A stretch of 60,829 nt of DNA from Algicola sp. (GCA_013216025.1 JABSOG010000010.1:1-60829); one strand, 5' to 3'; positions 225 through 28,850 are shown, counted from the stretch's first letter. Notes: generated by a model from the letters alone, not told the origin. A program made the numbers and translations.

Positions 225-1574
225 TTAATAAGTCCCATATTTTTTTAGAAACGAGTCAAAATCATCCAGGGCAACGCATTGTTGTCTGATGTTATAATCG
301 AACAGTTTTAATTTGTTGATGGCGTAATTCACCTTTTGTTCAAGCTTTGCAGCATCAAAATTTTTGCCTTGTAGTTTAGCTTCTAAAAAGAGCACTTCTT
401 TATCGATATCATTGATTGCAACTATGTCTATTTCGTTATGCCCCTTGCGATCCCAAAAACTGCCGATTCGATTGAATCGCATAGACTCTTTTAATATTTG
501 ACTCACCAGATGTTCAAATTCGCGACCTGCAAAACTGTCGAAGTCCCTTTCAATGATCTTCAAAATATAATGGGTGTTTTTCATTTCGACTGCGCTGCGG
601 TTTTTATAGATAAAACGAAACCAAAAACGCAAAAAGGCATCATTAATTTGGTAATGATGGCCTCTGGCACCGGGTTTGGCGTCTATTGAGTGGAATTTTT
701 TAACCAAATCGAATGTTGTCACCAGATTGTCTAGGGTTTCGTTTACCTGAATACCAATATAAGATTCGATCTGTGGTTTGGTGTTATTGCCAGAGGCGAT
801 TGCGCCTAAAATGTCAAAATAAGTCCTGTGCTCTTGCGAAAAATCATCAATCAGTCGATGCTTCCCTTCATCAAGCAAGGGCGAGAATTCACTCATCAAC
901 TGTTGGATTACGTTTTTTGAGGCGGTTGTGTTGGTCAACCATTCGAGGTATTTAGGAATACCGCCAGATAAGCACCACCAAGTCAGAAACTCTTTGGCGG
1001 TATACCTTTGTTCGTCAATCAATAATTCGCGTATGAATGATGGGGCAAGTGGCTTGATGTGAAAATAGTGATCATGGCGATTGAATAAAGGCTCGTCATC
1101 GTCTTTAAATATTTTAGTCATTAAAGAGTATATAGAGCCACTGGTGACCAAATGCATCTGAGCGCGCTGCCTGTATTTATCCCATAGATTTTGAAGGTCG
1201 GAATAAAAGCTAGCGTTAATATGCCTAATGTCTTGAAATTCATCAATAATCACTGTGATTGGATGAACGGTGGCGTGATCCAGTAAAAATTCCATAATGT
1301 CTATCAGTGAGTCAGGTGAGAAGAATTTTGCATTACACTCGATACGGATGATTTCAGCAAATTCTTGTACCAATACCTTCTCTGACTTTTTGCTGATAAA
1401 GAAATAAATATGTTTGGTATTTTTAAATGCTTCGTTTATCAGTCTTGTTTTACCGACCCTTCTAAATCCGACAAGTACAGATAAGCTGGATAATCCTTTA
1501 TTGGTATTCTGGCTAATTTGACGAAGCGTCTGTAGCTCTTGACTGCGGTTATAGAATTTTTTCATATGCTGCAC
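225..1574 (-). CDS. Stand-alone AAA ATPase of the archaeal-ATPase/DUF234 type
   Basis: 449-aa ORF. Walker A GFRRVGKT near the N-terminus, Walker B-like VIIDEFQ. The C-terminal half resembles the DUF234 region (family recalled from memory). Confidence 0.75.
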   Translation of the reverse strand: MQHMKKFYNRSQELQTLRQISQNTNKGLSSLSVLVGFRRVGKTRLINEAFKNTKHIYFFISKKSEKVLVQEFAEIIRIECNAKFFSPDSLIDIMEFLLDHATVHPITVIIDEFQDIRHINASFYSDLQNLWDKYRQRAQMHLVTSGSIYSLMTKIFKDDDEPLFNRHDHYFHIKPLAPSFIRELLIDEQRYTAKEFLTWWCLSGGIPKYLEWLTNTTASKNVIQQLMSEFSPLLDEGKHRLIDDFSQEHRTYFDILGAIASGNNTKPQIESYIGIQVNETLDNLVTTFDLVKKFHSIDAKPGARGHHYQINDAFLRFWFRFIYKNRSAVEMKNTHYILKIIERDFDSFAGREFEHLVSQILKESMRFNRIGSFWDRKGHNEIDIVAINDIDKEVLFLEAKLQGKNFDAAKLEQKVNYAINKLKLFDYNIRQQCVALDDFDSFLKKYGTY

Positions 1575-6081: not shown

Positions 6082-9000
6082 ATGTTGAGCACAGAAAAAC
6101 AATTTACGATTTTTTGTCATTTCTATGACCTTTTTACTTCAACATTACTACAAAAATTATTTATTGTCGGGTTGCTGGGATTTGTTTTGCCGCAAAGTGT
6201 CTTCGCTGGCAACGCTCTGGGGGCAGACTTAGTTAACCCTGGACCTGTGGTTGAGCAGATTAAAAGGGTTAGCGGCCAGAGTATTGTCGGGGTAAATCAT
6301 TTGTTACAAGATAGCTCGGGTTTTATCTGGCTGGCCACCGATGATGGTTTGTTGCGGTTTGACGGATATTCGATTAAACGCTTTGCCCATGACAGGCTCA
6401 ATCCCAACAGTTTGCCGCATAATACGGTTAAGGCGATGGTTGAAGATGACAGCGGTTATGTTTGGTTGATCACTTATGGGGGTGGCTTGAGCCGTTTGAC
6501 TTTAAAAACCAACCGATTCGATAATTTTTTCTATAACAAAGATGACGCAGCCACCCTCGACAGCAATTGGTTGAGCAGTATTGCTTTGGCCCAAGACAAT
6601 CAATTGTGGATTGGCTCTAGCCGGGGTATTAATTTGTTTGACCGCAATACGCTGACCAATCAACGCCTAGATCTTAAATTACAGCCAACCACCAGAATCG
6701 ACCGCAATACCATTCAGGCCCTTTATCAGGATAACGCTAGGCGATTGTGGTTTTCGGTCAAGGCCAAGGGATTGTTTATGGTCGAGTTAGACAGCAATAA
6801 AAGCCATCGCTTTGAACACGATGCCATTGATGTCCATTCGTTGGATTCGAATTTGGTCACCAATATTACTCAAGCAGGCAATGGTGATGTGTGGATAGGG
6901 ACTTTGCGAGGGGTTAACCGCTTTAATTCGCGACAACAAAATTTCGAACGATTTATTATTCCGACCAAGAGCAATAATCCCACCAAACAGGTGACAGTCA
7001 CCAGTTTGTTGTATGACAGTGCCGGGCGATTGTGGATTGGCAGCTTATATAATGGGGTTAGTGTGCTGTTATCCGGGGCGAAAAAGATAATTGGCATCAA
7101 TCAGGGGTCAAATGCGTTTGATTCACTCAGTGCGGTCAACATTAAACACATCATACAAGATATGTCGGGCACCCTTTGGTTTGCCACGGTACAAAGTGGT
7201 TTGGTGAAACTCAAAGATCAGGCGATGTTATTTGAGCATCATTTGGGCGCTATCAATGCGGGTGTCAGAATACGCTCGATTTATGCCGACAGCCAAGGCA
7301 AAGTTTGGCTGGGTGCACTGACCGGTCTTTATGGTTATGACGCTGGCCTGCAACAATTTAAGCCAGTATTACCAGATGTCGGTATTGTCACTGCGATCAC
7401 CGAAGATAAAGATCATCAAATAGTGATGAACGTGGACGATAAGGGGATTTTAAAATATAACCCAATGAGTGGCAGTGTGATGCCCTATGCCGATAACGGC
7501 GCGGTGATGCCATCGAACAATTTACATAGTTTGACGTTAGACAGCGATGGTACATTGTGGGCCGGACTGTATCGTTCTGATGACAATATCGCCGGTTTGT
7601 TCAGTTATAACAAAAGCCAGGGAAAATATGTGCAGCACTTCAACCAGTTTACGGTCGAAACCATCTTACCCCTTGAAAACCAAGTGTTGGTCGGTACCCG
7701 CCGTAATGGTTTGCGGGTGATGGACCGTGCAACTGGCCAATGGTCAGTGATCCGCGACGACCATCATGATCTCAACCGGATTTGGCAAATCTTCCAAGAT
7801 TCTGCCGGGCGAATTTGGGTGGCCAGTAATGTATCGGGTTTGGTCTTGTTGGATTTACCCACTCAAAAGATGCCTTTTTTCACCGACGAACAAGGATTGC
7901 CGGTCAATACCGTTAGAGCGGTGAGTGAAGATCAACAGGGCATGTTATGGCTGGGCACCACCAAAGGCATTGTTAAATTTGACCCTGAGTCATTTGAAGT
8001 TGCTGTTTTTATTGGGCAAGATGGTTTGAGGGTGGATTCGGTTTATCCGCGTATGAGTACCGTGACTCCCTCTGGCGATATCATTATGGCCAACGCCAGT
8101 GCCGTCAGCCGTTTTTCACCGGCAGCGCTGGTGGCAACCCAAGCCAAAAAGGCCAAGAGATTGCCGTTATTGTTGTCTCAATTTAAGTTGTTTAATCAGC
8201 CAGTGCCGATTGGCCTGTCGGGTTCTCCCTTATCGGCGACCATCAATCACACCAATACCCTAACCTTGTCTTATTTGGATTACTGGTTTTCGATTGCTTT
8301 TGCGAGCAGCGATCACAATAACGGTGAGCGCATACGTTATGCCTGGAAAATGGAAGGCCTGACAAGTCAGTGGGTCGAAACCGACAGCAACAACCGGGTG
8401 GCTTCTTTTATTTCAGCCCCGGCGGGGGACTATACCTTTAAGGTTAAAGCCAGCAACGCCGATGGACAATTTGGTGATGACTATCGAGCGGTGTCGATCA
8501 CCATTACTCCGCCGTTGTGGCAAACTTGGCAGGCCAAACTGATTTATACCTTGGCGGCACTCGCCTTTATTTATATGCTTTATTACTATCGTACGCGTTC
8601 ATTGGTCAACCGGGCCAAGGTGCTCGAACACAGTGTGAAAGCGCGCACGGCCACGATTAATCAATTGATGACCCGTAAAGAACAGATTTTTGCCAATATT
8701 TCTCACGAATTCAAAACGCCGTTGACGTTAATATTGACCCCGCTGGAGTCGGTGCTGAGCACTGAGTTACAAAGTGGGGCACGCAGTAAAATCAAAATGG
8801 CCATTCGTAACGGTCAAAGGTTGTTGCGCATGGTAGAGCAGTTGTTAGAACTGTCTCGTCTTGATACCTTCACTGAGCAAAAAAGCCACTACTATTCATT
8901 GCAACAAACGTTGTCGGTATTGCTAACTTCGTTCGAACCGCTGTTGCAAGACAAGCAGTTGATCATGGACTGTCCGTCTTTTGATGATGTGGTGGTGCCC

Positions 9001-10317
9001 TCAACAGCCGATGCGCTTGAAATGATATTGATTAATCTTATCTCTAACGCCATTAAATACACCCCGGCCAACGGCAAATTGAGCATTATTGTAGAGCCAG
9101 AGCTAGAGAAAAGCAGCGTCTGTATTACCGTCATTGATACCGGTATTGGTATTAGCGAGCAAGACCAACAACTGGTTTTTAACCGTTTCACCCGGGCTGA
9201 GATTGTTCACGACGAAAATATTCCCGGTGCCGGTATTGGTTTGGCGCTGGTTAAAGAGTTGGTCGAAAGCCTTGATGGCCAAATAACCCTGCAAAGTACG
9301 TTGAACGAGGGCAGTCGTTTTATCGTCACGTTGCCGATAAATACCGCTGGAGATGTTGCGTTTGAGCTGGACAACGGCTTGACCAATACATCTTTGCACG
9401 AAATTGAAAGTCTTGGCACTGTCGTTGGCGCTGTCGTTGGCGCTGTTATTGGATCGGAGGTTGGCAATAGGGCACCGGAGGTCGTTCAAAGTAGCATCGA
9501 CAGCCAAGGCGCAACAGGTAAACCCACCATTTTGTTGATTGATGACAATGCCGACATGTTGGTTTTACTTGAAGATACTTTGGCCCAGGGTTTTGCTTGT
9601 TTGCGTGCCAACAACGGCGAAGATGGGCTGAAACTGGCGATAGCGCAAATTCCTGATTTGATCATTTGTGATGTGATGATGCCGGGGATCAGTGGTTATG
9701 AGGTGGCAAAACGATTGAAACTTGAACAACTGACGGTGCATATTCCCATTGTGTTGTTGACCGCTAAAGGCGATATCGACTCTCGCATGGAAGGTTGGAA
9801 GCAAGAAGTAGATGATTATTTGGCCAAACCTTTCCACCCGGCCGAGTTAAGAATGAGAGTCGACAGTTTGCTGTCGATTCGTAAATTGCTGAAAAAACGC
9901 TTCAATCGGGTGGTCGAAGTGCCAGCGGCCATAACTGGGGGGTTAGTTGCGCCGGGACAACCCCAGACACCCGCCAGTGTGGTCAGCGACAAAGACCGAC
10001 AATTTATCGAACAATTTAATGCAGTGCTGGATAAAAACTACGCCAATCCAGATTTCAGTCGTGAACAAGCAGCCATTCAAATGCATGTGGGCGATCATCA
10101 ACTGTATCGCAAGCTCAGCGCCTTGCTCGAAGACACCTTTACCGACATATTAAGGGAGCACCGACTTAATATTTCAATTGAACTGTTTAAAACCGGGCTG
10201 CAAATTGGTCAAATTGCCGAACAAGTGGGTTTTACTTCGACCCCTTATTTTAGTAAATGCTTTAAAGCACGTTACGGTAATACGCCCAAACAGTATCAAA
10301 AAGAGTTGTTGCGATAG
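6082..10317 (+). CDS. Hybrid two-component system protein: periplasmic beta-propeller/Y_Y_Y sensor, TM, HisKA-HATPase kinase, receiver, AraC-type HTH
   Basis: 1411 aa. Repeated DxxGxxWxGT propeller repeats and a TM segment (LIYTLAALAFIYMLYYY). H-box NISHEFKTPL; N and G boxes (NLISNAIKYTP, DTGIGI, GAGIGLALV). Receiver ILLIDDNADM..DLIICDVMMPG..LTAK. C-terminal AraC HTH (GFTSTPYFSKCFKARYGNTPKQY). Confidence 0.9.
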   Translation: MLSTEKQFTIFCHFYDLFTSTLLQKLFIVGLLGFVLPQSVFAGNALGADLVNPGPVVEQIKRVSGQSIVGVNHLLQDSSGFIWLATDDGLLRFDGYSIKRFAHDRLNPNSLPHNTVKAMVEDDSGYVWLITYGGGLSRLTLKTNRFDNFFYNKDDAATLDSNWLSSIALAQDNQLWIGSSRGINLFDRNTLTNQRLDLKLQPTTRIDRNTIQALYQDNARRLWFSVKAKGLFMVELDSNKSHRFEHDAIDVHSLDSNLVTNITQAGNGDVWIGTLRGVNRFNSRQQNFERFIIPTKSNNPTKQVTVTSLLYDSAGRLWIGSLYNGVSVLLSGAKKIIGINQGSNAFDSLSAVNIKHIIQDMSGTLWFATVQSGLVKLKDQAMLFEHHLGAINAGVRIRSIYADSQGKVWLGALTGLYGYDAGLQQFKPVLPDVGIVTAITEDKDHQIVMNVDDKGILKYNPMSGSVMPYADNGAVMPSNNLHSLTLDSDGTLWAGLYRSDDNIAGLFSYNKSQGKYVQHFNQFTVETILPLENQVLVGTRRNGLRVMDRATGQWSVIRDDHHDLNRIWQIFQDSAGRIWVASNVSGLVLLDLPTQKMPFFTDEQGLPVNTVRAVSEDQQGMLWLGTTKGIVKFDPESFEVAVFIGQDGLRVDSVYPRMSTVTPSGDIIMANASAVSRFSPAALVATQAKKAKRLPLLLSQFKLFNQPVPIGLSGSPLSATINHTNTLTLSYLDYWFSIAFASSDHNNGERIRYAWKMEGLTSQWVETDSNNRVASFISAPAGDYTFKVKASNADGQFGDDYRAVSITITPPLWQTWQAKLIYTLAALAFIYMLYYYRTRSLVNRAKVLEHSVKARTATINQLMTRKEQIFANISHEFKTPLTLILTPLESVLSTELQSGARSKIKMAIRNGQRLLRMVEQLLELSRLDTFTEQKSHYYSLQQTLSVLLTSFEPLLQDKQLIMDCPSFDDVVVPSTADALEMILINLISNAIKYTPANGKLSIIVEPELEKSSVCITVIDTGIGISEQDQQLVFNRFTRAEIVHDENIPGAGIGLALVKELVESLDGQITLQSTLNEGSRFIVTLPINTAGDVAFELDNGLTNTSLHEIESLGTVVGAVVGAVIGSEVGNRAPEVVQSSIDSQGATGKPTILLIDDNADMLVLLEDTLAQGFACLRANNGEDGLKLAIAQIPDLIICDVMMPGISGYEVAKRLKLEQLTVHIPIVLLTAKGDIDSRMEGWKQEVDDYLAKPFHPAELRMRVDSLLSIRKLLKKRFNRVVEVPAAITGGLVAPGQPQTPASVVSDKDRQFIEQFNAVLDKNYANPDFSREQAAIQMHVGDHQLYRKLSALLEDTFTDILREHRLNISIELFKTGLQIGQIAEQVGFTSTPYFSKCFKARYGNTPKQYQKELLR

Positions 10318-20036: not shown

Positions 20037-20996
20037 TCACTTGCCGCGACTGCTGCCGCGTGAAGTACGTGACGAACCACTGCGAACACTGCCACTATTA
20101 GACGAAAACACCGACTTTTTGGCAAACGAACTGCGTTTTGCCGGGGTGTGGCTGGCACGGCTCAGGCTCGACGAACCGACTCGACGTTTAGAATAAGGAC
20201 CCGTGAAACTTTTACCTCGGGCAGCAAAGGATTTTTTGGTTTTGCTATACAACTTTTGCTGTGTTTGTCTTTGTTTGGGGCTTGAATAACGATTGCGACC
20301 GTAGTCGCTGTAATAGCTGTAACCTCGGTTACGTCCCCAACCGCCGTAGTCGTAGCGATTATAACCCATGACGTTGCTGAACATTGAATACATGCCATAC
20401 CAAGCCCAAAAGCTGGTGCCGCCAGAGCCCGTTTGCCAGTTGCCGTAATTGGGGTTGCCGACTAATTGACTGCCAGGCCCCTGACCTTGGGACTTGTTGG
20501 CCGACACTTCGCTTTCGCGACTGATGGCATTAATACGGGGTAAAGTGCCATCGGACATATCTGCCAATACATTGATGGGATCAGATAGGGCATCGTTAAA
20601 CAGACTGAGTTGCGCACCTTCAGAAATGGCTTGCAGTTCGTTGATCCGCTGGTTTGGGTCGGCAAAGGCCTTGGCGTTGTTCTTGGCTTGGTCAAAGCGC
20701 AACACCAAGTTACTGTAAAGTGGCCCTTTGACGGTTGCATCTTTGGCTAAATGGTCAATTAAGGCGCCCAATTCTGGCTTTTTGGCTTTTAGCGTTTCGG
20801 CATATTGCAAGAGGATGGTGGTATTGCGAATACGTTTGTCATCAAGTGCCTTTTCGAGTTGTTGCAAGGCGGCGGCGGTGGCGCGGGCCTGCTGTTCGAC
20901 AGCTTTTTGAATTTGCTCTTCTTTGGACGTACAGGCCGTCACTAACAAAGTTAGTGTGATCAGCGTCAACAAACGTTTGAGACTGGGTTTCAACAT
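20037..20996 (-). CDS. Lipoprotein with a low-complexity Gly/Ser/Arg/Tyr-rich C-terminus, first gene of the Psp-like operon
   Basis: Lipobox LLVTAC. Helical N-terminal half. C-terminal GWGRNRGYSYYSDYGRNRY...SGSSRTSRGSSRGK. Confidence 0.65.
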   Translation of the reverse strand: MLKPSLKRLLTLITLTLLVTACTSKEEQIQKAVEQQARATAAALQQLEKALDDKRIRNTTILLQYAETLKAKKPELGALIDHLAKDATVKGPLYSNLVLRFDQAKNNAKAFADPNQRINELQAISEGAQLSLFNDALSDPINVLADMSDGTLPRINAISRESEVSANKSQGQGPGSQLVGNPNYGNWQTGSGGTSFWAWYGMYSMFSNVMGYNRYDYGGWGRNRGYSYYSDYGRNRYSSPKQRQTQQKLYSKTKKSFAARGKSFTGPYSKRRVGSSSLSRASHTPAKRSSFAKKSVFSSNSGSVRSGSSRTSRGSSRGK

Positions 20997-21948: not shown

Positions 21949-21958
21949 TTGCGAGAGG

Positions 21959-22030
21959 CCAGATATCTTATTTAACCTCGAAGCCAACGCTTTTGAGGCT
22001 AGGTATTTGGCACAAAATAACACCGTTTGA
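21959..22030 (+). repeat. Left direct repeat of the defence islet, a truncated relic of a higA-like 3' end
   Basis: 72 nt reading PDILFNLEANAFEARYLAQNNTV-stop. The first 30 nt are identical to 28773-28802, with a 6-nt in-frame deletion and a few substitutions after that. Confidence 0.8.
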
Positions 22031-22064: not shown

Positions 22065-22092
22065 TTGGCACCTTCCTTATAACCTGTATAAT
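22065..22092 (+). promoter_or_regulatory. Candidate sigma70 promoter of the SIR2-ATPase/HNH operon
   Basis: TTGGCA-N16-TATAAT, ending 38 nt upstream of the ATG at 22130. Confidence 0.45.
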
Positions 22093-22129: not shown

Positions 22130-24751
22130 ATGGATGCTGTAAAAATCCCTGCAAGTTTAAAGCTGGCTTTGCAAAACCGCACGCTGGTGCCTTTTGTTGG
22201 TGCTGGGTCGTCGCTCTCTGTATTAAACAAGGTTACCGGTAGGTCACTGTTTCCCAGTTTTTCTCAATTATTTCATGCAGCGGCAGACGAACTTGAGAGG
22301 GAGCAGAAAACTTCAGCAGCAAGCGCTATCCGTGCCAGCTTGGACTACATGGAAGAAGATTCTTTTATCAGGGCTGGAAAAATAGCCCAAAAAGAGATGG
22401 GAAAACCCCAATGGGAACAGTTTTTAAAACAACATCTTGATCCAGAGCAAAGCGATAGTGATCCAGAAAGTATGGATATTGCCAAAACAGTCTGGCAATT
22501 GGGCAGTAAGCTAGTTGTCACCATGAACTACGATAAAGTGTTGGATTGGAGTTGTCCTGCACATTGGCAAGATGACTTGATACATTGGTCAACTGAAACC
22601 TCATTTGACCGCATGCGGGCACTGGGAGTTGCTTTTCAGCACCCTACAGTGTGGCACCTGAATGGCCAAATTGGTGATGTAGATAAAGCCATCATGTCAC
22701 CTTATGAGGATCGGGGCGGACTGTCCGGGTTAAGCAGTTTGCTCAGCACACGTTCGTTATTGTTTATTGGTTTTGGCTTTTCGGATATTGTTTTTAATCA
22801 GCAACTTAAACTCAGTGAAGGTAATGGCCGCAAACACTACGCACTGATTCATGCCCGGCAACAGCAAGCGATTGATGACCTTGAGTTACCGCTCGAAACC
22901 CTTGTTTTTGACAATTACAGTGACTTGCCTGCGATCTTGTTACAACTGGCCAGTTTTGTCGAAGACGATAAACCCGCAGCCAATAGCACTGAGTCAACTC
23001 AAACCCGTATCACTGCTTTGGTACAAACAACACAACAAAACCCTAAACAGGCAGCACGCTTAACTGAGTTTATCGAACAGCAGGCTTCACTTATCACAGT
23101 GAATGTTGCTCAGTTAAGTGACAAACTTGCTGGTGTGCAGGTTATTTCAGAGCTGGTGACCATTGTCGATGCAGTGAATTATCAAGCTGTATTTGCGGCT
23201 ATTAATCCTTTACTCGCAGTAGTGCGAGCTAAGCGTCTACCTTTATTGATTTATTTGGCTAACCCCGTGACACCAGAAGCCCTCGCTAAAATTGAAAAAA
23301 CAATAATGCAATCTTTGCCTGATATCAGTTTTCTGTTGAAAATCGCTGATAGTGACAAACAATTTTCAGCTTATTATGCACAGATTCAAGCAGGCATTGA
23401 ATTTCAAAAAACTGTGCCTGTGGTGCGATTTAAACGATTGACCTTGCAAAATATTGGCGTGTATCAAACCCTAGATATTGAGTTTCGTGAGCGTGCCACC
23501 GTTATCATCGGTTTAAATGGCGCGGGTAAGACGACGATATTAAAAGCACTGACCTTAGCTGTGCTTGGTCCAGACAATGCCAAGATAGACCAGAGTATGG
23601 CCGGTTCGCTTTTAAGGATAACCGGCAAAAAAGACAAACAGACAATATGGGACAAACAAGCTCAAATTACGCTGGTCGCCACAAAAAATGGCAAACCCTA
23701 TGAGAACACCATTACGCTGCGTTATAACCCTGCAACAGAAATGATTGAAGCGCAGGGCAGTCGTTTTGAGGCATTGTTTTTTGGTGATCATCAACTGATT
23801 AATCTGATTTTGGGTATTGGTGAGCAACGTAATTCCAGCATCAACAAACAGCAAAGTAATGGGCTTGAGCAGTTCCATCCCAAAGTGCGTGATTTATTAC
23901 CCATCATTCGGGGTGAAGAGATCTCCTGCATTGGTCATTTTAAAGATTGGATTGGTAATCTTGAATTAGCGGCATTAAATGGCAAAACCGGTCAACGACG
24001 ATTAATCAATGTCACTTTTGCGATTTTTGCCGCGCTGATGAAAGAATCCATTCACTTTGCCGGACTCACCCAAATTGACCCGCTGGAATTATGGGTGGAA
24101 CATCAAGAACCAAAACAGTTGGTGCCTTTGCAACTGGCGAGTCAGGGTTATCAGGCCGTTATGGGTTGGGTCGGTTTCATTGTTAAGCGCATGTTTGAAG
24201 CCTACGAACGGGCCCTTGAGCCATTACAACAGCCTGCCATTATTTTCATTGATGAAATTGACCAGTTGCTGCATGTAAAGTGGCAACAGCAAATACTCAA
24301 CATTTTGGCTGACACATTTTTCCCCAATACCCAATGGATTGTGACCACCCACTCGCCAGTAGTGGTTGCGGGATTAGAGCAAGACCAGGTGATCCAATTG
24401 CTGCCAAAAAATGGCGTCATGGTGGCAGAGCACAATGAGGTTGATTTGTGGTTATGGCAATATGGCGACGTGGTTAAATACCTTTTTGGTGTGGTGCCGA
24501 TAGAACCCAAAGTCTATGAGTCACAAATTAGCGCTGATATTGCCAACATAAAACATCAAGACACGGCCACACAGCCGTTAACATCAGAGCAGCAGCAGCA
24601 ACTGCAAAAGCTTGAAGACCAGCTTAGCAAGGTGCAAAAAAGTCGAGCTTTTGTTGATAAAGTCTATAAAGAGCAACAAAACCTGCGTGCCCGAGAGCAA
24701 GAGTTGAAGGCATTAATCGAAACGCTCAACCAACAAAATCAGCAGGGTTAA
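22130..24751 (+). CDS. SIR2-like (SIR2_2 type) domain fused to an ABC/PtuA-like ATPase with a coiled-coil tail
   Basis: 873 aa. SIR2 motifs LVPFVGAGSS (aa 19-28), VVTMNYD (129-135), WHLNG (175-179), LLFIGFGFSD (210-219). ATPase motifs: Walker A GLNGAGKTT (461-469), QLASQGYQ, Walker B IIFIDEIDQLLH, VTTHSP. Q-rich coiled coil at the C-terminus. Confidence 0.8.
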   Translation: MDAVKIPASLKLALQNRTLVPFVGAGSSLSVLNKVTGRSLFPSFSQLFHAAADELEREQKTSAASAIRASLDYMEEDSFIRAGKIAQKEMGKPQWEQFLKQHLDPEQSDSDPESMDIAKTVWQLGSKLVVTMNYDKVLDWSCPAHWQDDLIHWSTETSFDRMRALGVAFQHPTVWHLNGQIGDVDKAIMSPYEDRGGLSGLSSLLSTRSLLFIGFGFSDIVFNQQLKLSEGNGRKHYALIHARQQQAIDDLELPLETLVFDNYSDLPAILLQLASFVEDDKPAANSTESTQTRITALVQTTQQNPKQAARLTEFIEQQASLITVNVAQLSDKLAGVQVISELVTIVDAVNYQAVFAAINPLLAVVRAKRLPLLIYLANPVTPEALAKIEKTIMQSLPDISFLLKIADSDKQFSAYYAQIQAGIEFQKTVPVVRFKRLTLQNIGVYQTLDIEFRERATVIIGLNGAGKTTILKALTLAVLGPDNAKIDQSMAGSLLRITGKKDKQTIWDKQAQITLVATKNGKPYENTITLRYNPATEMIEAQGSRFEALFFGDHQLINLILGIGEQRNSSINKQQSNGLEQFHPKVRDLLPIIRGEEISCIGHFKDWIGNLELAALNGKTGQRRLINVTFAIFAALMKESIHFAGLTQIDPLELWVEHQEPKQLVPLQLASQGYQAVMGWVGFIVKRMFEAYERALEPLQQPAIIFIDEIDQLLHVKWQQQILNILADTFFPNTQWIVTTHSPVVVAGLEQDQVIQLLPKNGVMVAEHNEVDLWLWQYGDVVKYLFGVVPIEPKVYESQISADIANIKHQDTATQPLTSEQQQQLQKLEDQLSKVQKSRAFVDKVYKEQQNLRAREQELKALIETLNQQNQQG

Positions 24752-24754
24752 CTC

Positions 24755-25573
24755 ATGCATTATGTGAGGCGAAGTGAGCAACCATCATTACTGACGGAAC
24801 ACCAACACGAGTGGACAACACCTTGGCTTGCCTACTTTGAATGGCAACAATCCAGCGATATTGAGCGGCCAAAAAAACCGACAACCGCACATTGGCTCAA
24901 AGAGCAAATTCGGCGCCCGTTGATTAGAGATTTTCAAAATAATTGCGGTTATTGTGGTGAGGTATTACCCACGCCCATGAGTTTTGAAAGTAAGCTTAAC
25001 TGTGATGTCGTCAGTTGGCTCAGTAAAGGAGATGTTGACCATTTTTGGCCAAAAGCCACTTATCCAGAACGGGTCTACCAATGGTTTAACTATATTTGGT
25101 GCTGTAAACCGTGTAACCAACATAAAAGAGAATTCAGCAGTAAGGTGGCATCACTGTTAAATCCTTGTGTGGCAGAGGATTGTAAAGGGGTTTTCTTTGA
25201 CAGTAGCACAGGCCGATATTGCCTGACTGCCAAATTGGTCAATGACCTGAATTGGCAGCAACGACTCGATAATAGTCAACTCTATACCATGCTAAATGCT
25301 GATGAAATATGCCACAGGCGCAGCCACGAAATAATGACATTACAAGACCGTTTTATATCGTTGGACGAGAGTATTAAGACTATCAATTTACTGGGCGGGG
25401 GCTTGCTCACTGGCGCAGCAGATGTTATTGAGAAACAACAACGCAGCCAGAAAAAAGACATTGCCGCCATCGGCAGGGTTTTAAAATACCCTGCTTACAA
25501 AAGGCTTATTACCGCACAATATCAACTGTTATTACAACAATTCCCAGCCGTTAAATCAGTGTTGGCGGGTTAG
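24755..25573 (+). CDS. HNH endonuclease, PtuB-like (TIGR02646-type pattern)
   Basis: 272 aa, starts 3 nt after the upstream stop. CGYCGE ... DVDHFWPK ... NYIWCCKPCNQHK. Confidence 0.75.
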   Translation: MHYVRRSEQPSLLTEHQHEWTTPWLAYFEWQQSSDIERPKKPTTAHWLKEQIRRPLIRDFQNNCGYCGEVLPTPMSFESKLNCDVVSWLSKGDVDHFWPKATYPERVYQWFNYIWCCKPCNQHKREFSSKVASLLNPCVAEDCKGVFFDSSTGRYCLTAKLVNDLNWQQRLDNSQLYTMLNADEICHRRSHEIMTLQDRFISLDESIKTINLLGGGLLTGAADVIEKQQRSQKKDIAAIGRVLKYPAYKRLITAQYQLLLQQFPAVKSVLAG

Positions 25574-25739: not shown

Positions 25740-26597
25740 TTACGCATTACCTAGGCCAAGGGCTTGAATAAAACCACCTGCACAGAATTCTTCGTTTTTA
25801 GCCAATGAACCAAGTAAAGAGGAGCGCCAGTCATTTTTCCCCATTTTCCTTGTGTAGTGTTCATCTTGTTTAATAAGCAACTCTTTTACTGCTGCTGCAT
25901 CCTTCTCTTCGCCAAAAGCCATTTCAAGCGGCACGGCTTGCCCAGTAAGCAAGATATTGATCTCTTTTTTCAACCTGTCTGAAAGTAGCACTCTGTTACA
26001 TTGAAAATTAAGCATTTGATAGACGTTTTTTTTGAGTGTTGGCGTACGGTCAATTTGAAACTCAACAGTTAGTGCGCCATCAATTATCTTGGTGAGCGCA
26101 GTTAGAAATCTTTCATCTTGCGGTACTTTGTCATAATAAGCATGAATAAAACTATTTTGAGGTGTTTCACCAGCCACAGCACGTTTTTTGTTATTACACT
26201 TGTGACACATAGGTATCAAATTACTTGAGTAGATAGCAAGTAATTCATATACAGATTCAGGAAGATGATGATCTAAGTCTTCAACAGTGCTTATACTGCA
26301 TACAGGACAACGATTTGAGGCGAGTATCAGACGAGATCTTAATGCTGCCAGCCTTCTTTTGACCTGAACTTCCTTATATCCTTCCTTTACTGCTGCTTTG
26401 GTTGCGGCAGTAAACCCCTCACCCAATAATGGCTGTTGAGCCCGACCAGCCAATTTTTCATAAAGCTCATATAGCTCTTTGATTGCCGCAACTTCTTCTT
26501 TAGTAAGTTCATATTTTGCTTTGCCATTACAATACGTCAAAGCAGTTTTGAGTTCTGCAATTGCATTTTTATTAGAGGGTAAAGGCAATGTCCACAT
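25740..26597 (-). CDS. HNH endonuclease, second PtuB-like protein
   Basis: Start at M10 (MWTLPLP), one nt after the upstream stop, with a GGGGAAGG SD. CPVCS...DLDHHLP...NLIPMCHKCNNKK. Confidence 0.75.
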   Translation of the reverse strand: MWTLPLPSNKNAIAELKTALTYCNGKAKYELTKEEVAAIKELYELYEKLAGRAQQPLLGEGFTAATKAAVKEGYKEVQVKRRLAALRSRLILASNRCPVCSISTVEDLDHHLPESVYELLAIYSSNLIPMCHKCNNKKRAVAGETPQNSFIHAYYDKVPQDERFLTALTKIIDGALTVEFQIDRTPTLKKNVYQMLNFQCNRVLLSDRLKKEINILLTGQAVPLEMAFGEEKDAAAVKELLIKQDEHYTRKMGKNDWRSSLLGSLAKNEEFCAGGFIQALGLGNA

Positions 26598-26598
26598 T

Positions 26599-28272
26599 TT
26601 ACCTTCCCCTTGAATGCTTAGCACTCGCCAATTTTGACATCAGGTATGCTCTGCCTTGCATACTCAAATCATCACTAAATACTTTTTCTATTTTCTTCAT
26701 AATCGCTTGTATATCCCAAGGTGTTGACGCTGTAAAAACAGCATGGTTATACACGGTATCCAGCACATTATGATAGTCACTTACATCGGAGGATAATTGA
26801 AAAACGTGAGAGGTAATTAGCCCAATACTTTCACCAAAAGTTTGGATCTCTGGCTCAATTATTTTTGTCAAACCTTCATGCCTGCGAATTATTCTGACAT
26901 GACGACTCAATGTTTCTTGAATGACCACAGGAGAATGGGTAGCAACAATAGCAAAAGCATTCTTTTTTTCTAACACATATCTTATTGCGTCCATCAGTAC
27001 AGCTAAAAGTGGTGGGTGCAGGTGCGTCTCAGGTTCATCAAACAAAATCAACGTTCTGGCACCTGTATGTGCGACGATATTTGTTAACGAATGCAGTACG
27101 AATTTGTGACCGGTACTAAGCTGCATAAATAATTTTTTGAAATCCATTCTTGAAATATCTGCCCAGCCACTGATATTATATTGTGCAAAAGACGGTTCCT
27201 TCGCAATAATCTGCAGTACTTTCGAAAATAATCGTTCATTCTTGTCGCTTTCAATTTTATCAATTAGTTCTACAAACTCCGCAGCTAATTGCTCAACTGG
27301 CTTCAACAAAGTAGAATTCTGCCGATCTGCAATTATGTTCTGCTCACTCAATTTGTCATTTTTGTTCATCTTGTCAGTTGCAAGAGCCGCTTTTAACTCA
27401 GCGACAACGTCTCTAATACCACAAAAAATATAACGACCAAGATGCTGCTCTAATTCTTTGGCAATTTGCACCTTTTCAGAGCGATAAATCCCCGGCACCT
27501 GAAAGCTGTCAAATGCGCTATATGAAATATTAAGAATTTTTGGAAACCCAATTCCTTTCGGTTCCAAATAGCCAACTTTTCGCAAGCTCTGATCATTGCG
27601 GTCTGCTGGGGCGGCAAAAGCGATCCTAGATATTTTTGACAATAATGTACTTTTACCACAACCATTTCGCCCAACAAGCACCATAACCCTACCGGGCAGT
27701 GATTCTTCAAACCCAATACTAGGCGCATCAAAATCCAAAGACAGCGCATGCTCCAATCCTTCAGAATGGAATTTAAAAACAGTGTCTAAATCAGGAAAGT
27801 GGCTGTACTCCTTGGAAACCACAAAAGGCGCAATAGTAAAAATGTCATCCTGCTCATCAAAGTCTCTCAACAATGACTTATTCCACCCTTCTTCATTGAT
27901 TAAATTGGCTTTATATTCTGGGTGAATCACGACATCTCTCAAAAAACTAAACAATCTGATTCTCAGTTTCTCATCAATATTGGATAATCGCTCATAATAG
28001 TCCAGAGATTGTCCAAGAGAACAATAGCTTTCGTCCAGTGTTGCTAAAGGGCCAATGTCAATTCGAAAACAAAGATCAGCTGTTTGGTCTTTTTTTAGTA
28101 TTTTGACTATTCCGATATTAACTGGTTTGCCATCGGGGGAATGTTTGGATGATAAAGTTAGGTGATATTGAGTCTTAAACGAGAAATCATTCCATTTATC
28201 CTGTGACAAATAGAAGTCATATTCAGTACTTGTTGTTATTTTTGGTGAGGGTTCCAGTACTTTTATAAACAT
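26599..28272 (-). CDS. ABC-type ATPase with a roughly 190-aa N-terminal domain of unknown function, partner of the HNH protein (Septu-like)
   Basis: 557 aa. Walker A LVGRNGCGKSTLL at about aa 200, signature-like QLSTGHK, Walker B LILFDEPETHLHP, ATHSP. Confidence 0.75.
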   Translation of the reverse strand: MFIKVLEPSPKITTSTEYDFYLSQDKWNDFSFKTQYHLTLSSKHSPDGKPVNIGIVKILKKDQTADLCFRIDIGPLATLDESYCSLGQSLDYYERLSNIDEKLRIRLFSFLRDVVIHPEYKANLINEEGWNKSLLRDFDEQDDIFTIAPFVVSKEYSHFPDLDTVFKFHSEGLEHALSLDFDAPSIGFEESLPGRVMVLVGRNGCGKSTLLSKISRIAFAAPADRNDQSLRKVGYLEPKGIGFPKILNISYSAFDSFQVPGIYRSEKVQIAKELEQHLGRYIFCGIRDVVAELKAALATDKMNKNDKLSEQNIIADRQNSTLLKPVEQLAAEFVELIDKIESDKNERLFSKVLQIIAKEPSFAQYNISGWADISRMDFKKLFMQLSTGHKFVLHSLTNIVAHTGARTLILFDEPETHLHPPLLAVLMDAIRYVLEKKNAFAIVATHSPVVIQETLSRHVRIIRRHEGLTKIIEPEIQTFGESIGLITSHVFQLSSDVSDYHNVLDTVYNHAVFTASTPWDIQAIMKKIEKVFSDDLSMQGRAYLMSKLASAKHSRGR

Positions 28273-28537: not shown

Positions 28538-28850
28538 ATGGAAACCATTAAAAATACAACCAAAACTGTCGGTATCGATGCACTTGGCGATTTTCTTGCT
28601 CCGTCAAAAGGTGCTGGTGCTTATGTAAAACACCATTTGACAGGCAAAGAGATCAATCTATCACAAGCGGCCCAAATTCTAGGTGTTAACTTCGACTATT
28701 TTACTTTTGTTTGAGGGCAGTCGTTTGACCACCAATATGGCATCAAAGCTATACAACCACTTTGGAATTGAGCCAGATATCTTATTTAACCTCGAAGCCA
28801 AAGCCTATGCTTTTGAAGCAAGGCATTTGGCGCAAAATAACGTGGCTTAA
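28538..28850 (+). pseudogene. HigA-type (XRE HTH) antitoxin gene with a +1 frameshift
   Basis: Frame 1 reads METIKNT...LSQAAQILGV and stops at 28712. The shifted frame continues TSTILLLFEGSRLTTNMASKLYNHFGIEPDILFNLEAKAYAFEARHLAQNNVA. Together these match the HigA pattern (LGVS...GK..LT..MA.RL...FG....W.NLQ). No toxin ORF lies upstream. Confidence 0.65.
28773..28850 (+). repeat. Right direct repeat of the defence islet (3' end of the higA-like gene)
   Basis: Aligns with 21959-22030. Confidence 0.8.

Follow-up and report, generated by a model that had tools for sequence, protein, structure and literature searches.

A SIR2-like domain fused to a PtuA-type ATPase and paired with a PtuB-type HNH protein in Algicola sp.: a candidate Septu-type module with an altered SIR2 active site

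A SIR2-PtuA fusion gene and its PtuB-type partner

Septu is among the commonest bacterial defence systems, and how its ATPase, PtuA, senses infection is poorly understood. Here we describe a candidate Septu-type gene pair from Algicola sp., in which a SIR2-like domain precedes a PtuA-type ATPase in one protein and a PtuB-type HNH protein is encoded directly downstream. The pair lies at positions 22130-25573 of a 60,829-nucleotide (nt) stretch of DNA (GCA_013216025.1 JABSOG010000010.1:1-60829), the whole of which is referred to below as the window. An earlier note, written from the sequence alone, had proposed that one ATPase controls both a SIR2-type NADase and a DNA nuclease in a previously undescribed system. 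The features of the pair are listed here, with amino acid (aa) positions in brackets.

22130..24751, plus strand: SIR2-like / PtuA-like ATPase fusion gene, an 873-aa open reading frame (ORF) with Pfam, PADLOC and NCBIfam matches
22139..22993, plus strand: SIR2_2-type domain (aa 4-288), with the GAGSS loop and N133/D135 kept
22661..22663, plus strand: codon 178, AAT (Asn), at the canonical catalytic His position of the SIR2 'HG' motif
22970..23044, plus strand: predicted disordered linker and inferred domain-swap junction (aa ~281-305), with a predicted local distance difference test score (pLDDT) <50 at aa 280-302
23009..23425, plus strand: middle domain (aa 294-432), common to the HTH-LRR-PtuA clade described below
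23426..24529, plus strand: PtuA-type ABC/SMC-head ATPase domain (aa 433-800), matched by AAA_15/21/23, SMC_N and PADLOC PtuA
24530..24748, plus strand: C-terminal coiled-coil region (aa 801-873), Q-rich, with conserved columns from L825 to L866
24755..25573, plus strand: PtuB-type HNH protein gene, a 272-aa ORF (PADLOC PtuB 1.4e-20)
24938-25132, plus strand: HNH/zinc core of the PtuB-type protein (aa 62-126: C64, C67, D95-H96, N112, C117, C120, N121)

Both ORFs were recovered as the earlier note had given them, as were the repeats that bound the surrounding islet and a second ATPase+HNH pair within it. ORF calling leaves a gap of 3 nt between the stop of the fusion gene and the start of the PtuB-type ORF, and the two genes are translationally coupled. 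The motifs listed in that note also lie where it placed them: LVPFVGAGSS (19-28), N133/D135 (in TMNYD), WHLNG (175-179) and LLFIGFGFSD in the SIR2-like part; K467, SQGYQ (671-675), D708/E709, H741 of THSP and a Q-rich C-terminus in the ATPase part; and CGYC (64-67), DVDH (93-96) and CKPCN (117-121) in the second ORF. Searches of Pfam, PADLOC and the Protein Data Bank (PDB), together with Foldseek, identify a SIR2_2 domain, a PtuA-type ATPase and a PtuB-type HNH partner, with scores far above those that chance would give.

In the ATPase part, AAA_15, AAA_21 and AAA_23 exceed their Pfam cut-offs and together with SMC_N span aa 433-760, while PADLOC PtuA models match aa 429-843 of the fusion protein with scores of up to 4.9e-43. 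Among solved structures, the PtuA chains score about 1e-18, including Septu 8ee4 (8.7e-18) and the retron Ec78/Ec83 PtuA chains 9vh1, 9kjx and 9e8z, in a sequence alignment that covers the C-terminal lobe and the P-loop only. The ATPase motifs are all intact (Walker A K467, signature S671-Q675, Walker B D708/E709 and H-loop H741), and the same residues are invariant across the alignment of the HTH-LRR-PtuA clade, whose members carry a helix-turn-helix (HTH) and leucine-rich repeats (LRR). Ahead of the ATPase lies the middle domain of about 140 aa, which is poorly conserved with an alternating beta/alpha pattern; aa 294-432 found no match in Pfam, PADLOC or PDB-profile searches. The Septu PtuA hexamer binds two PtuB via the PtuA C-terminal domains (PMC12065111), and by analogy with docking in the structure described there, the C-terminal coiled coil of the fusion protein is the probable docking region for PtuB.

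The PADLOC PtuB match to the second protein extends over aa 1-200, and its four cysteines and D95-H96/N112/N121 residues are invariant among the PtuB-type family members aligned. Profile searches had been put forward in the earlier note as a check; they place SIR2_2 and AAA_15/21/23 above their cut-offs, and TIGR02646 on the HNH protein under its own (29.8 bits, cut-off 52). Pfam HNH matches five of six family members, the window protein itself having weak HNH_4/HNH_5 matches only. An AlphaFold2 (AF2) model of the PtuB-type protein from six sequences was poor (pLDDT 65, HNH core <55), and a Foldseek search with this model returned nothing at E ≤ 0.001. When the PtuB family profile was compared with the PDB, the only match was a weak one, to the TIGR02646 protein 9n69_F (E = 0.1).

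PADLOC names two Septu types, type I (PtuAB) and type II (reverse transcriptase [RT] + PtuAB). At the level of sequence, the window pair falls within the definition of Septu type I: like the structurally described examples (8EE4/8EE7/8EEA), it consists of two co-oriented and tightly coupled genes for a PtuA head with its full set of motifs and a Cys4 HNH PtuB. It differs from them in an N-terminal extension of about 430 aa, whereas canonical PtuA has about 450-550 aa and no such extension. A retron type I-A / Septu type II system draws on the same PtuAB effector pair family, and was rejected here because the islet holds no RT ORF and the NCBIfam equivalogs for the retron-type proteins score far below their cut-offs (PtuA 123.5 bits against 500; PtuB 23.2 bits against 150). 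There was no Rfam match at E ≤ 0.1 between 20 and 30 kb of the window.

The SIR2-like domain and its catalytic position

Pfam SIR2_2 matches aa 128-244 of the fusion protein at 38.4 bits (cut-off 24.5). An AF2 model of aa 1-320, built with 27 relatives, reached a pLDDT of 83 and a predicted template modelling score (pTM) of 0.79, with aa 280-302 as its sole low-confidence segment. The best PDB matches of this model by Foldseek were ThsA, Avs5 (SIR2-STAND), DSR2, FAM118B, SIR2-HerA and KomC, at a probability of 1.00; the earlier note had suggested a comparison with ThsA and DSR2. Template modelling (TM) scores against ThsA, DSR2, SIR2-HerA and KomC were 0.5-0.67. With these four proteins the window domain shares the SIR2 fold, the Gly-rich loop and the Asn/Asp pair. 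All four, however, have and need a catalytic His where the window protein has Asn, and their partners or regulators are different (SLOG, tail-tube sensing, HerA and KomB).

The earlier note had named His176 as the hallmark SIR2 His, and this assignment turned out to be out of register. In the HMMER alignment to ThsA structures VWHLNGQ pairs with VYKLHGD, and therefore the ThsA 'HG' His corresponds to Asn178; an alignment of 85 unfused relatives likewise places the His at 178. Position 178 is His in 85/85 of these relatives, with WHLHG in 27/27 of the closest, and is Asn in all three assemblies that carry the fusion gene. Position 176 is variable among the same 85 proteins (H 65, Y 11, K 6, Q 2, N 1). 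We rejected a sequencing error at codon 178, since an identical AAT is found in three assemblies whose copies of the protein differ by single residues elsewhere.

The substitution at 178 is accompanied by others. Of the 50 columns with conservation of 90% or more, the fusion SIR2 deviates at nine and its closest relatives at 0-1; the deviating columns include T132M, beside the pocket Asn, and S216G. Four residues in columns that are invariant or nearly so (82-85 of 85 relatives), G24, G26, N133 and D135, are retained.

Sirtuins in general use the 'HG'-motif His for catalysis, and its replacement by Tyr is the classic inactivating substitution in these enzymes. In KomC, H146A abolishes both NADase activity and defence (PMC13454610). 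Judging from PDB entry titles, H171A has been used in several DSR2 cryo-electron microscopy entries to trap NAD+, and H146N appears in one KomBC entry; our literature search found no paper on KomC H146N. Because the catalytic His is absent, the SIR2 domain of the fusion protein is probably a regulatory or sensor domain and not an NAD-destroying enzyme. The NADase activity proposed in the earlier note is correspondingly weakened, having been founded on a residue other than the one at the true catalytic position.

That proposal can nevertheless be stated in a form that accommodates Asn178, with one ATPase controlling both the PtuB nuclease and a SIR2 NADase that would remain active because His176 or Asn178 suffices. 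We regard this as unlikely. It is consistent with the SIR2_2 fold and the intact Gly-rich loop and Asn133/Asp135, and with the parent SIR2-STAND lineage, in which SIR2 is a presumed NADase effector. Lamassu offers a precedent for SIR2 effectors under SMC/ABC-type ATPases, and the N-terminal domain of the window protein matches PADLOC LmuA at 3.9e-12. In Lamassu with a SIR2-type LmuA the SIR2 domain is functionally tied to such an ATPase as it is here, but effector and ATPase are encoded as distinct proteins (LmuA, LmuB and sometimes LmuC) and there is no HNH partner; neither LmuB nor LmuC was found among the four genes of the islet. Four members of another SIR2-PtuA-like fusion family, described below, also keep the His. 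Against a dual effector stand the fixed His at position 178 of the unfused relatives together with the variability of position 176, the additional changes T132M and S216G at near-invariant positions of the pocket region, the inactivity of KomC H146A, and the loss of the His from that other fusion family as well.

Origin of the fusion and a wider SIR2-PtuA-like family

The two halves of the fusion protein have different closest relatives. From aa ~293 to 873 it is 53-58% identical to HTH-LRR proteins of about 785 aa; within this region, ATPase-domain identity to the HTH-LRR-PtuA clade is 0.57-0.63, and the PtuB proteins are 46-50% identical. The SIR2 domain (aa 5-300) is instead 35-44% identical to SIR2 proteins of about 1000 aa with tetratricopeptide repeats (TPR) and NB-ARC (STAND) domains. 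Homology to the SIR2 relatives ends at aa ~290-302, and the LRR-PtuA clade aligns from aa ~293 onwards. Since the two parental homologies meet at aa ~290-305, inside the one segment that is modelled with low confidence, the fusion gene is a module swap in which SIR2 replaced HTH-LRR. The ATPase, the middle domain and PtuB are thus orthologous to those of the HTH-LRR-PtuA/PtuB clade, and the SIR2 domain comes from SIR2-STAND/TPR proteins.

Comparison with the two parental groups is in keeping with this origin. The HTH-LRR-PtuA clade shares the middle domain, the ATPase, the coiled coil and PtuB with the window, and differs in having an XRE-type HTH and LRR at the N-terminus where the window protein has SIR2_2 and no LRR or HTH match. 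The SIR2-STAND/SIR2-TPR proteins (Avs5-like; 9JAP), as the source lineage of the SIR2 domain, differ in their NB-ARC/STAND NTPase and TPR, in keeping the His (85/85), and in lacking the ABC ATPase and PtuB. Loci of the HTH-LRR-PtuA clade have a layout much like that of the window. On the metagenome contigs with P0002 (L001, L002 and L004) PtuB starts 3 nt past the ATPase stop and is 46% identical to the window PtuB; Brumicola pallidula DSM 14239, a cultured isolate, shows this HTH-LRR-PtuA/PtuB layout with a gap of 13 nt; and the clade also occurs in metagenome-assembled genomes (MAGs) of Alteromonadaceae and Methylococcales. A GmrSD-like (DUF262-type) gene adjoins HTH-LRR-PtuA/PtuB loci.

Two side observations concern the domain order in this clade. 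At L001 6001-9201 and L010 5137-8311, XRE-HTH, LRR, middle domain and PtuA ATPase follow one another in a protein of about 785 aa, with PtuB after it. Shorter members (P0012 and P0014) have the HTH and lack the LRR.

Among 5.8 billion clustered proteins the exact architecture of the window protein was found in the fusion's own cluster only, an exhaustive HMMER scan of 1.84 billion representatives returned no other protein that strongly matches both halves, and a single-protein scan of contigs from species-representative genomes found no relative. The gene is known as three near-identical copies in three assemblies, with the 873-codon frame intact in each, and the same islet was found on an independent ENA metagenome scaffold (L014).

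A broader class of SIR2-PtuA-like fusions is, by contrast, recurrent. Local profile searches on the HMMER-scan matches turned up proteins with weaker SIR2 and ATPase matches, which Pfam confirmed as SIR2_2 + AAA_15/21/23. With a profile built from five of them, SIR2_2 with a PtuA-type ATPase was seen in 96 of the 120 clusters listed (family proteins P0185-P0290), from environmental bacteria and one Bathyarchaeota MAG. A PtuB homologue lies directly downstream in 5/5 sampled loci (L011, L012, L015, L016 and L017; PADLOC 7e-33 to 3e-48). Add-on modules are often present (TIR, EAD7, WD40, TPR/NB-ARC, kinase, PLD and receiver), and in some members TIR or EAD7 stands ahead of SIR2_2. As to whether such a system is undescribed, the claim of the earlier note holds in part: no named subtype or paper came to light, and yet the architecture recurs in public sequence data, in at least about 95 clusters. 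The literature searched, in which subscription papers were partly outside coverage, contained no description or named subtype of SIR2-PtuA fusions.

Three observations on single members of this family may be added. P0281 carries a RAMP/Cmr6-like domain. In L017 a separate SIR2-TPR gene (7703-10093, minus strand) adjoins the SIR2-PtuA/PtuB pair, and in L016 a SLATT_4 gene (7476-7970) follows PtuB. The latter two neighbours give a hint of a defence setting for these pairs, or of accessory partners.

The window protein resembles this family in its order of SIR2_2 and PtuA-like ATPase, in the PtuB downstream and in the usual loss of the His. It differs in its SIR2 subfamily (the one typified by 'WHLHG', against 'LKLYG' in the family), in its middle domain, which the family lacks, and in the extra modules that are frequent there. 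We rejected membership by descent: the ATPase is at most 0.33 identical to those of the family, against 0.57-0.63 to the LRR clade. A neighbour-joining tree built from an hmmalign alignment places the window protein inside a group of 94 SIR2-less proteins, with the other 73 SIR2-bearing proteins forming a separate clade. Because this tree was built without bootstrap support, the case for separate descent draws chiefly on the difference in identity (0.6 against 0.33). The SIR2 domains of the family, moreover, reach no more than 28-52 bits with the window-type SIR2 profile. The window fusion is a singleton lineage, and the broader SIR2-on-PtuA class is recurrent and uncharacterised.

Both local profiles are passed by 79 family members, and where the catalytic His would stand these have Tyr in 64 cases, Phe in six, Ser in three, Lys in two and His in four. 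The TNxD Asn is kept in nearly all family members and the Gly-rich loop in those aligned; at least three of the four His-retaining members also carry TIR. The His is thus present in 85/85 unfused relatives against 4/79 members of the fusion family, and is absent from the window lineage. Twice independently, then, a SIR2 domain in the PtuA slot has lost its catalytic His and kept the NAD pocket. This association between His loss and fusion, though striking, is not statistical proof, as it reflects only about two evolutionary events.

These comparisons bear on whether the window protein is a recent chimera, formed when recombination joined a SIR2 fragment to a PtuA gene, in which the SIR2 passenger is decaying; what is left would be either an ordinary Septu deprived of its LRR sensor or a defective system. 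Searches of 5.8 to 15 billion proteins place the protein in a lineage of its own, the changes at nine of 50 near-invariant SIR2 positions include the catalytic His, and the islet bears recombination scars (a duplicated HigA-like 3' fragment and a frameshifted HigA-like gene), all of which would fit decay. The reading frame, however, is intact in all three assemblies, the SIR2 fold is modelled with confidence throughout, the Gly loop and the Asn/Asp pair are kept, and there is a strong promoter-like site upstream. The His-less state is also conserved in a large independent family; since that family too has replaced the His and kept the pocket, a His-less SIR2 on PtuA looks selected and not decayed. 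We therefore consider a decaying passenger rather unlikely.

Proposed function and islet context

In characterised Septu the nuclease is ATP-regulated and the phenotype resembles abortive infection; in E. coli Septu, protection against phage requires the Walker A/B and H-N-H motifs (PMC13096335). Septu and retron PtuAB cause cleavage of tRNA-Tyr in vivo, and the purified complexes nick DNA (PMC13096335, PMC12819146). The 'DNA nuclease' of the earlier note is thus an uncertain label.

Our preferred reading, which we hold with about even confidence, is that the window pair would form a Septu-type anti-phage module with PtuB as its effector and the His-less SIR2 domain as a non-canonical input or assembly module. 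Judged by predicted domain order, the His-less SIR2 domain occupies the slot that in related PtuA proteins holds LRR, TPR or beta-helix repeats, the LRR being putative sensor repeats. PtuA oligomers would hold PtuB in check, as in characterised Septu, until phage sensing and the ATP state release or activate it. Activated PtuB would then damage nucleic acid, by DNA nicking or tRNA-Tyr cleavage, and lead to abortive infection. The SIR2-like domain, non-catalytic or weakly catalytic, would gate the ATPase, and might do so by binding NAD+ or an NAD-derived ligand, by binding a phage protein or through oligomerisation. The context is that of defence, with a PDC-M01 pair adjoining the window pair and GmrSD beside its LRR-clade homologues.

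More tentatively, and in our view possible but doubtful, the His-less SIR2 could be a recurrent, convergent input module of Septu, acting as a pseudoenzyme that keeps its NAD pocket and senses NAD+ or NAD-derived metabolites, or as an integrated decoy for phage anti-SIR2 proteins, and in both cases coupling NAD-centred conflict to the activation of PtuB. The window gene would then be an independent and recent re-invention in which the LRR was swapped out.

Several points weigh against an input or assembly role for the SIR2 domain and PtuB as effector. His176, two residues upstream of Asn178, may approach the pocket and partly substitute for the missing His, and Asn itself can still hydrogen-bond the ribose, so that residual NADase or ADP-ribosyltransferase activity is possible. 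The gene is known from one lineage, through three near-identical sequences. LRR, TPR and beta-helix modules are found at the N-terminus of PtuA-like ATPases, and the slot is not exclusively one for sensors, because some N-terminal fusions to PtuA are of effector type (TIR, EAD7). Finally, the PtuB assignment leans on PADLOC profiles and motifs, the NCBIfam scores being below cut-off and the AF2 model poor.

The locus and its relatives show the N-terminus of PtuA to be a slot into which LRR, TPR, beta-helix, TIR or SIR2 modules can be swapped. Should the His-less SIR2 sense a ligand or a protein, it would offer a case of a SIR2 pseudoenzyme serving as an immune input, apparently undescribed since the literature searched contained none, and NAD metabolism would be tied to a nuclease effector. 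Should SIR2 still be an NADase, a single protein would couple NAD+ depletion and nuclease activity. By inference, domain-level tools of the PADLOC type would probably give SIR2-PtuA-like fusions the plain label 'Septu'.

The pair lies in an islet of four genes flanked by a DUF3750 gene and a Lactamase_B_5 gene. Its remaining features are as follows.

21958..22021, plus strand: left islet-boundary repeat, a 64-nt remnant of the 3' end of a HigA/XRE-like gene, directly after the DUF3750 stop
22065..22092, plus strand: promoter-like site TTGGCA-16-TATAAT, ~40 nt 5' of the fusion ATG, with 11/12 consensus positions
25740..28272, minus strand: convergent second ATPase+HNH pair (PDC-M01A 26599-28272, PDC-M01B 25740-26624, 26-nt overlap)
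28538..28850, plus strand: frameshifted HigA/XRE-like ORF, containing the right boundary repeat (28772-28841)

The promoter-like site is the best-scoring one of the region, as judged by consensus match alone. Direct repeats of about 64-70 nt, 85-92% identical, mark the two ends of the islet (21958-22021 and 28772-28841), and the left one translates as RPDILFNLEANAFEARYLAQNN. The first 58 codons of the frameshifted HigA/XRE-like ORF are annotated as a gene in L014. Together, the boundary repeats and the frameshifted HigA-like copy have the look of a scar that recombination left when cassettes were exchanged here. Neither an integrase nor a tRNA gene lies near the islet, and an island at a tRNA site was rejected, there being zero tRNA genes in the window.

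Of the second pair, the 557-aa ATPase matches the PADLOC profile PDC-M01A at 2.1e-103 and also the PtuA model PDLC00282 at 2.9e-79, and the 294-aa HNH protein matches PDC-M01B at 1e-41. Since this pair matches PDC-M01A/B and its ATPase also matches PtuA, the islet holds two Septu-like modules tail to tail.

This setting also bears on a role outside defence, in which the ATPase+HNH pair would serve in addiction, as a toxin-antitoxin-like unit or in repair. HigA-like antitoxin remnants flank the islet, Pfam describes AAA_21 as an 'AbiEii toxin' type domain, and defence by the window pair is itself a prediction. We nonetheless find such a role very improbable in view of the strong PtuA and PtuB profile matches, the second candidate defence pair next door, and the homologues that lie beside GmrSD, SLATT and SIR2-TPR genes. 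Septu and retron PtuAB are, moreover, experimentally validated defences (PMC13096335, PMC12819146).

Two genes elsewhere in the window are recorded as minor observations. The minus-strand ORF at 20037-20996 encodes a predicted lipoprotein-like protein of 319 aa whose C-terminal half is of low complexity and rich in Ser, Arg, Gly and Tyr; it has no Pfam match and is conserved in the ENA scaffold L014. The protein of 449 aa encoded at the window edge (225-1574, minus strand) combines an ATPase_2 domain (archaeal-type ATPase) with DUF234, an architecture that sometimes occurs in defence or mobile contexts.

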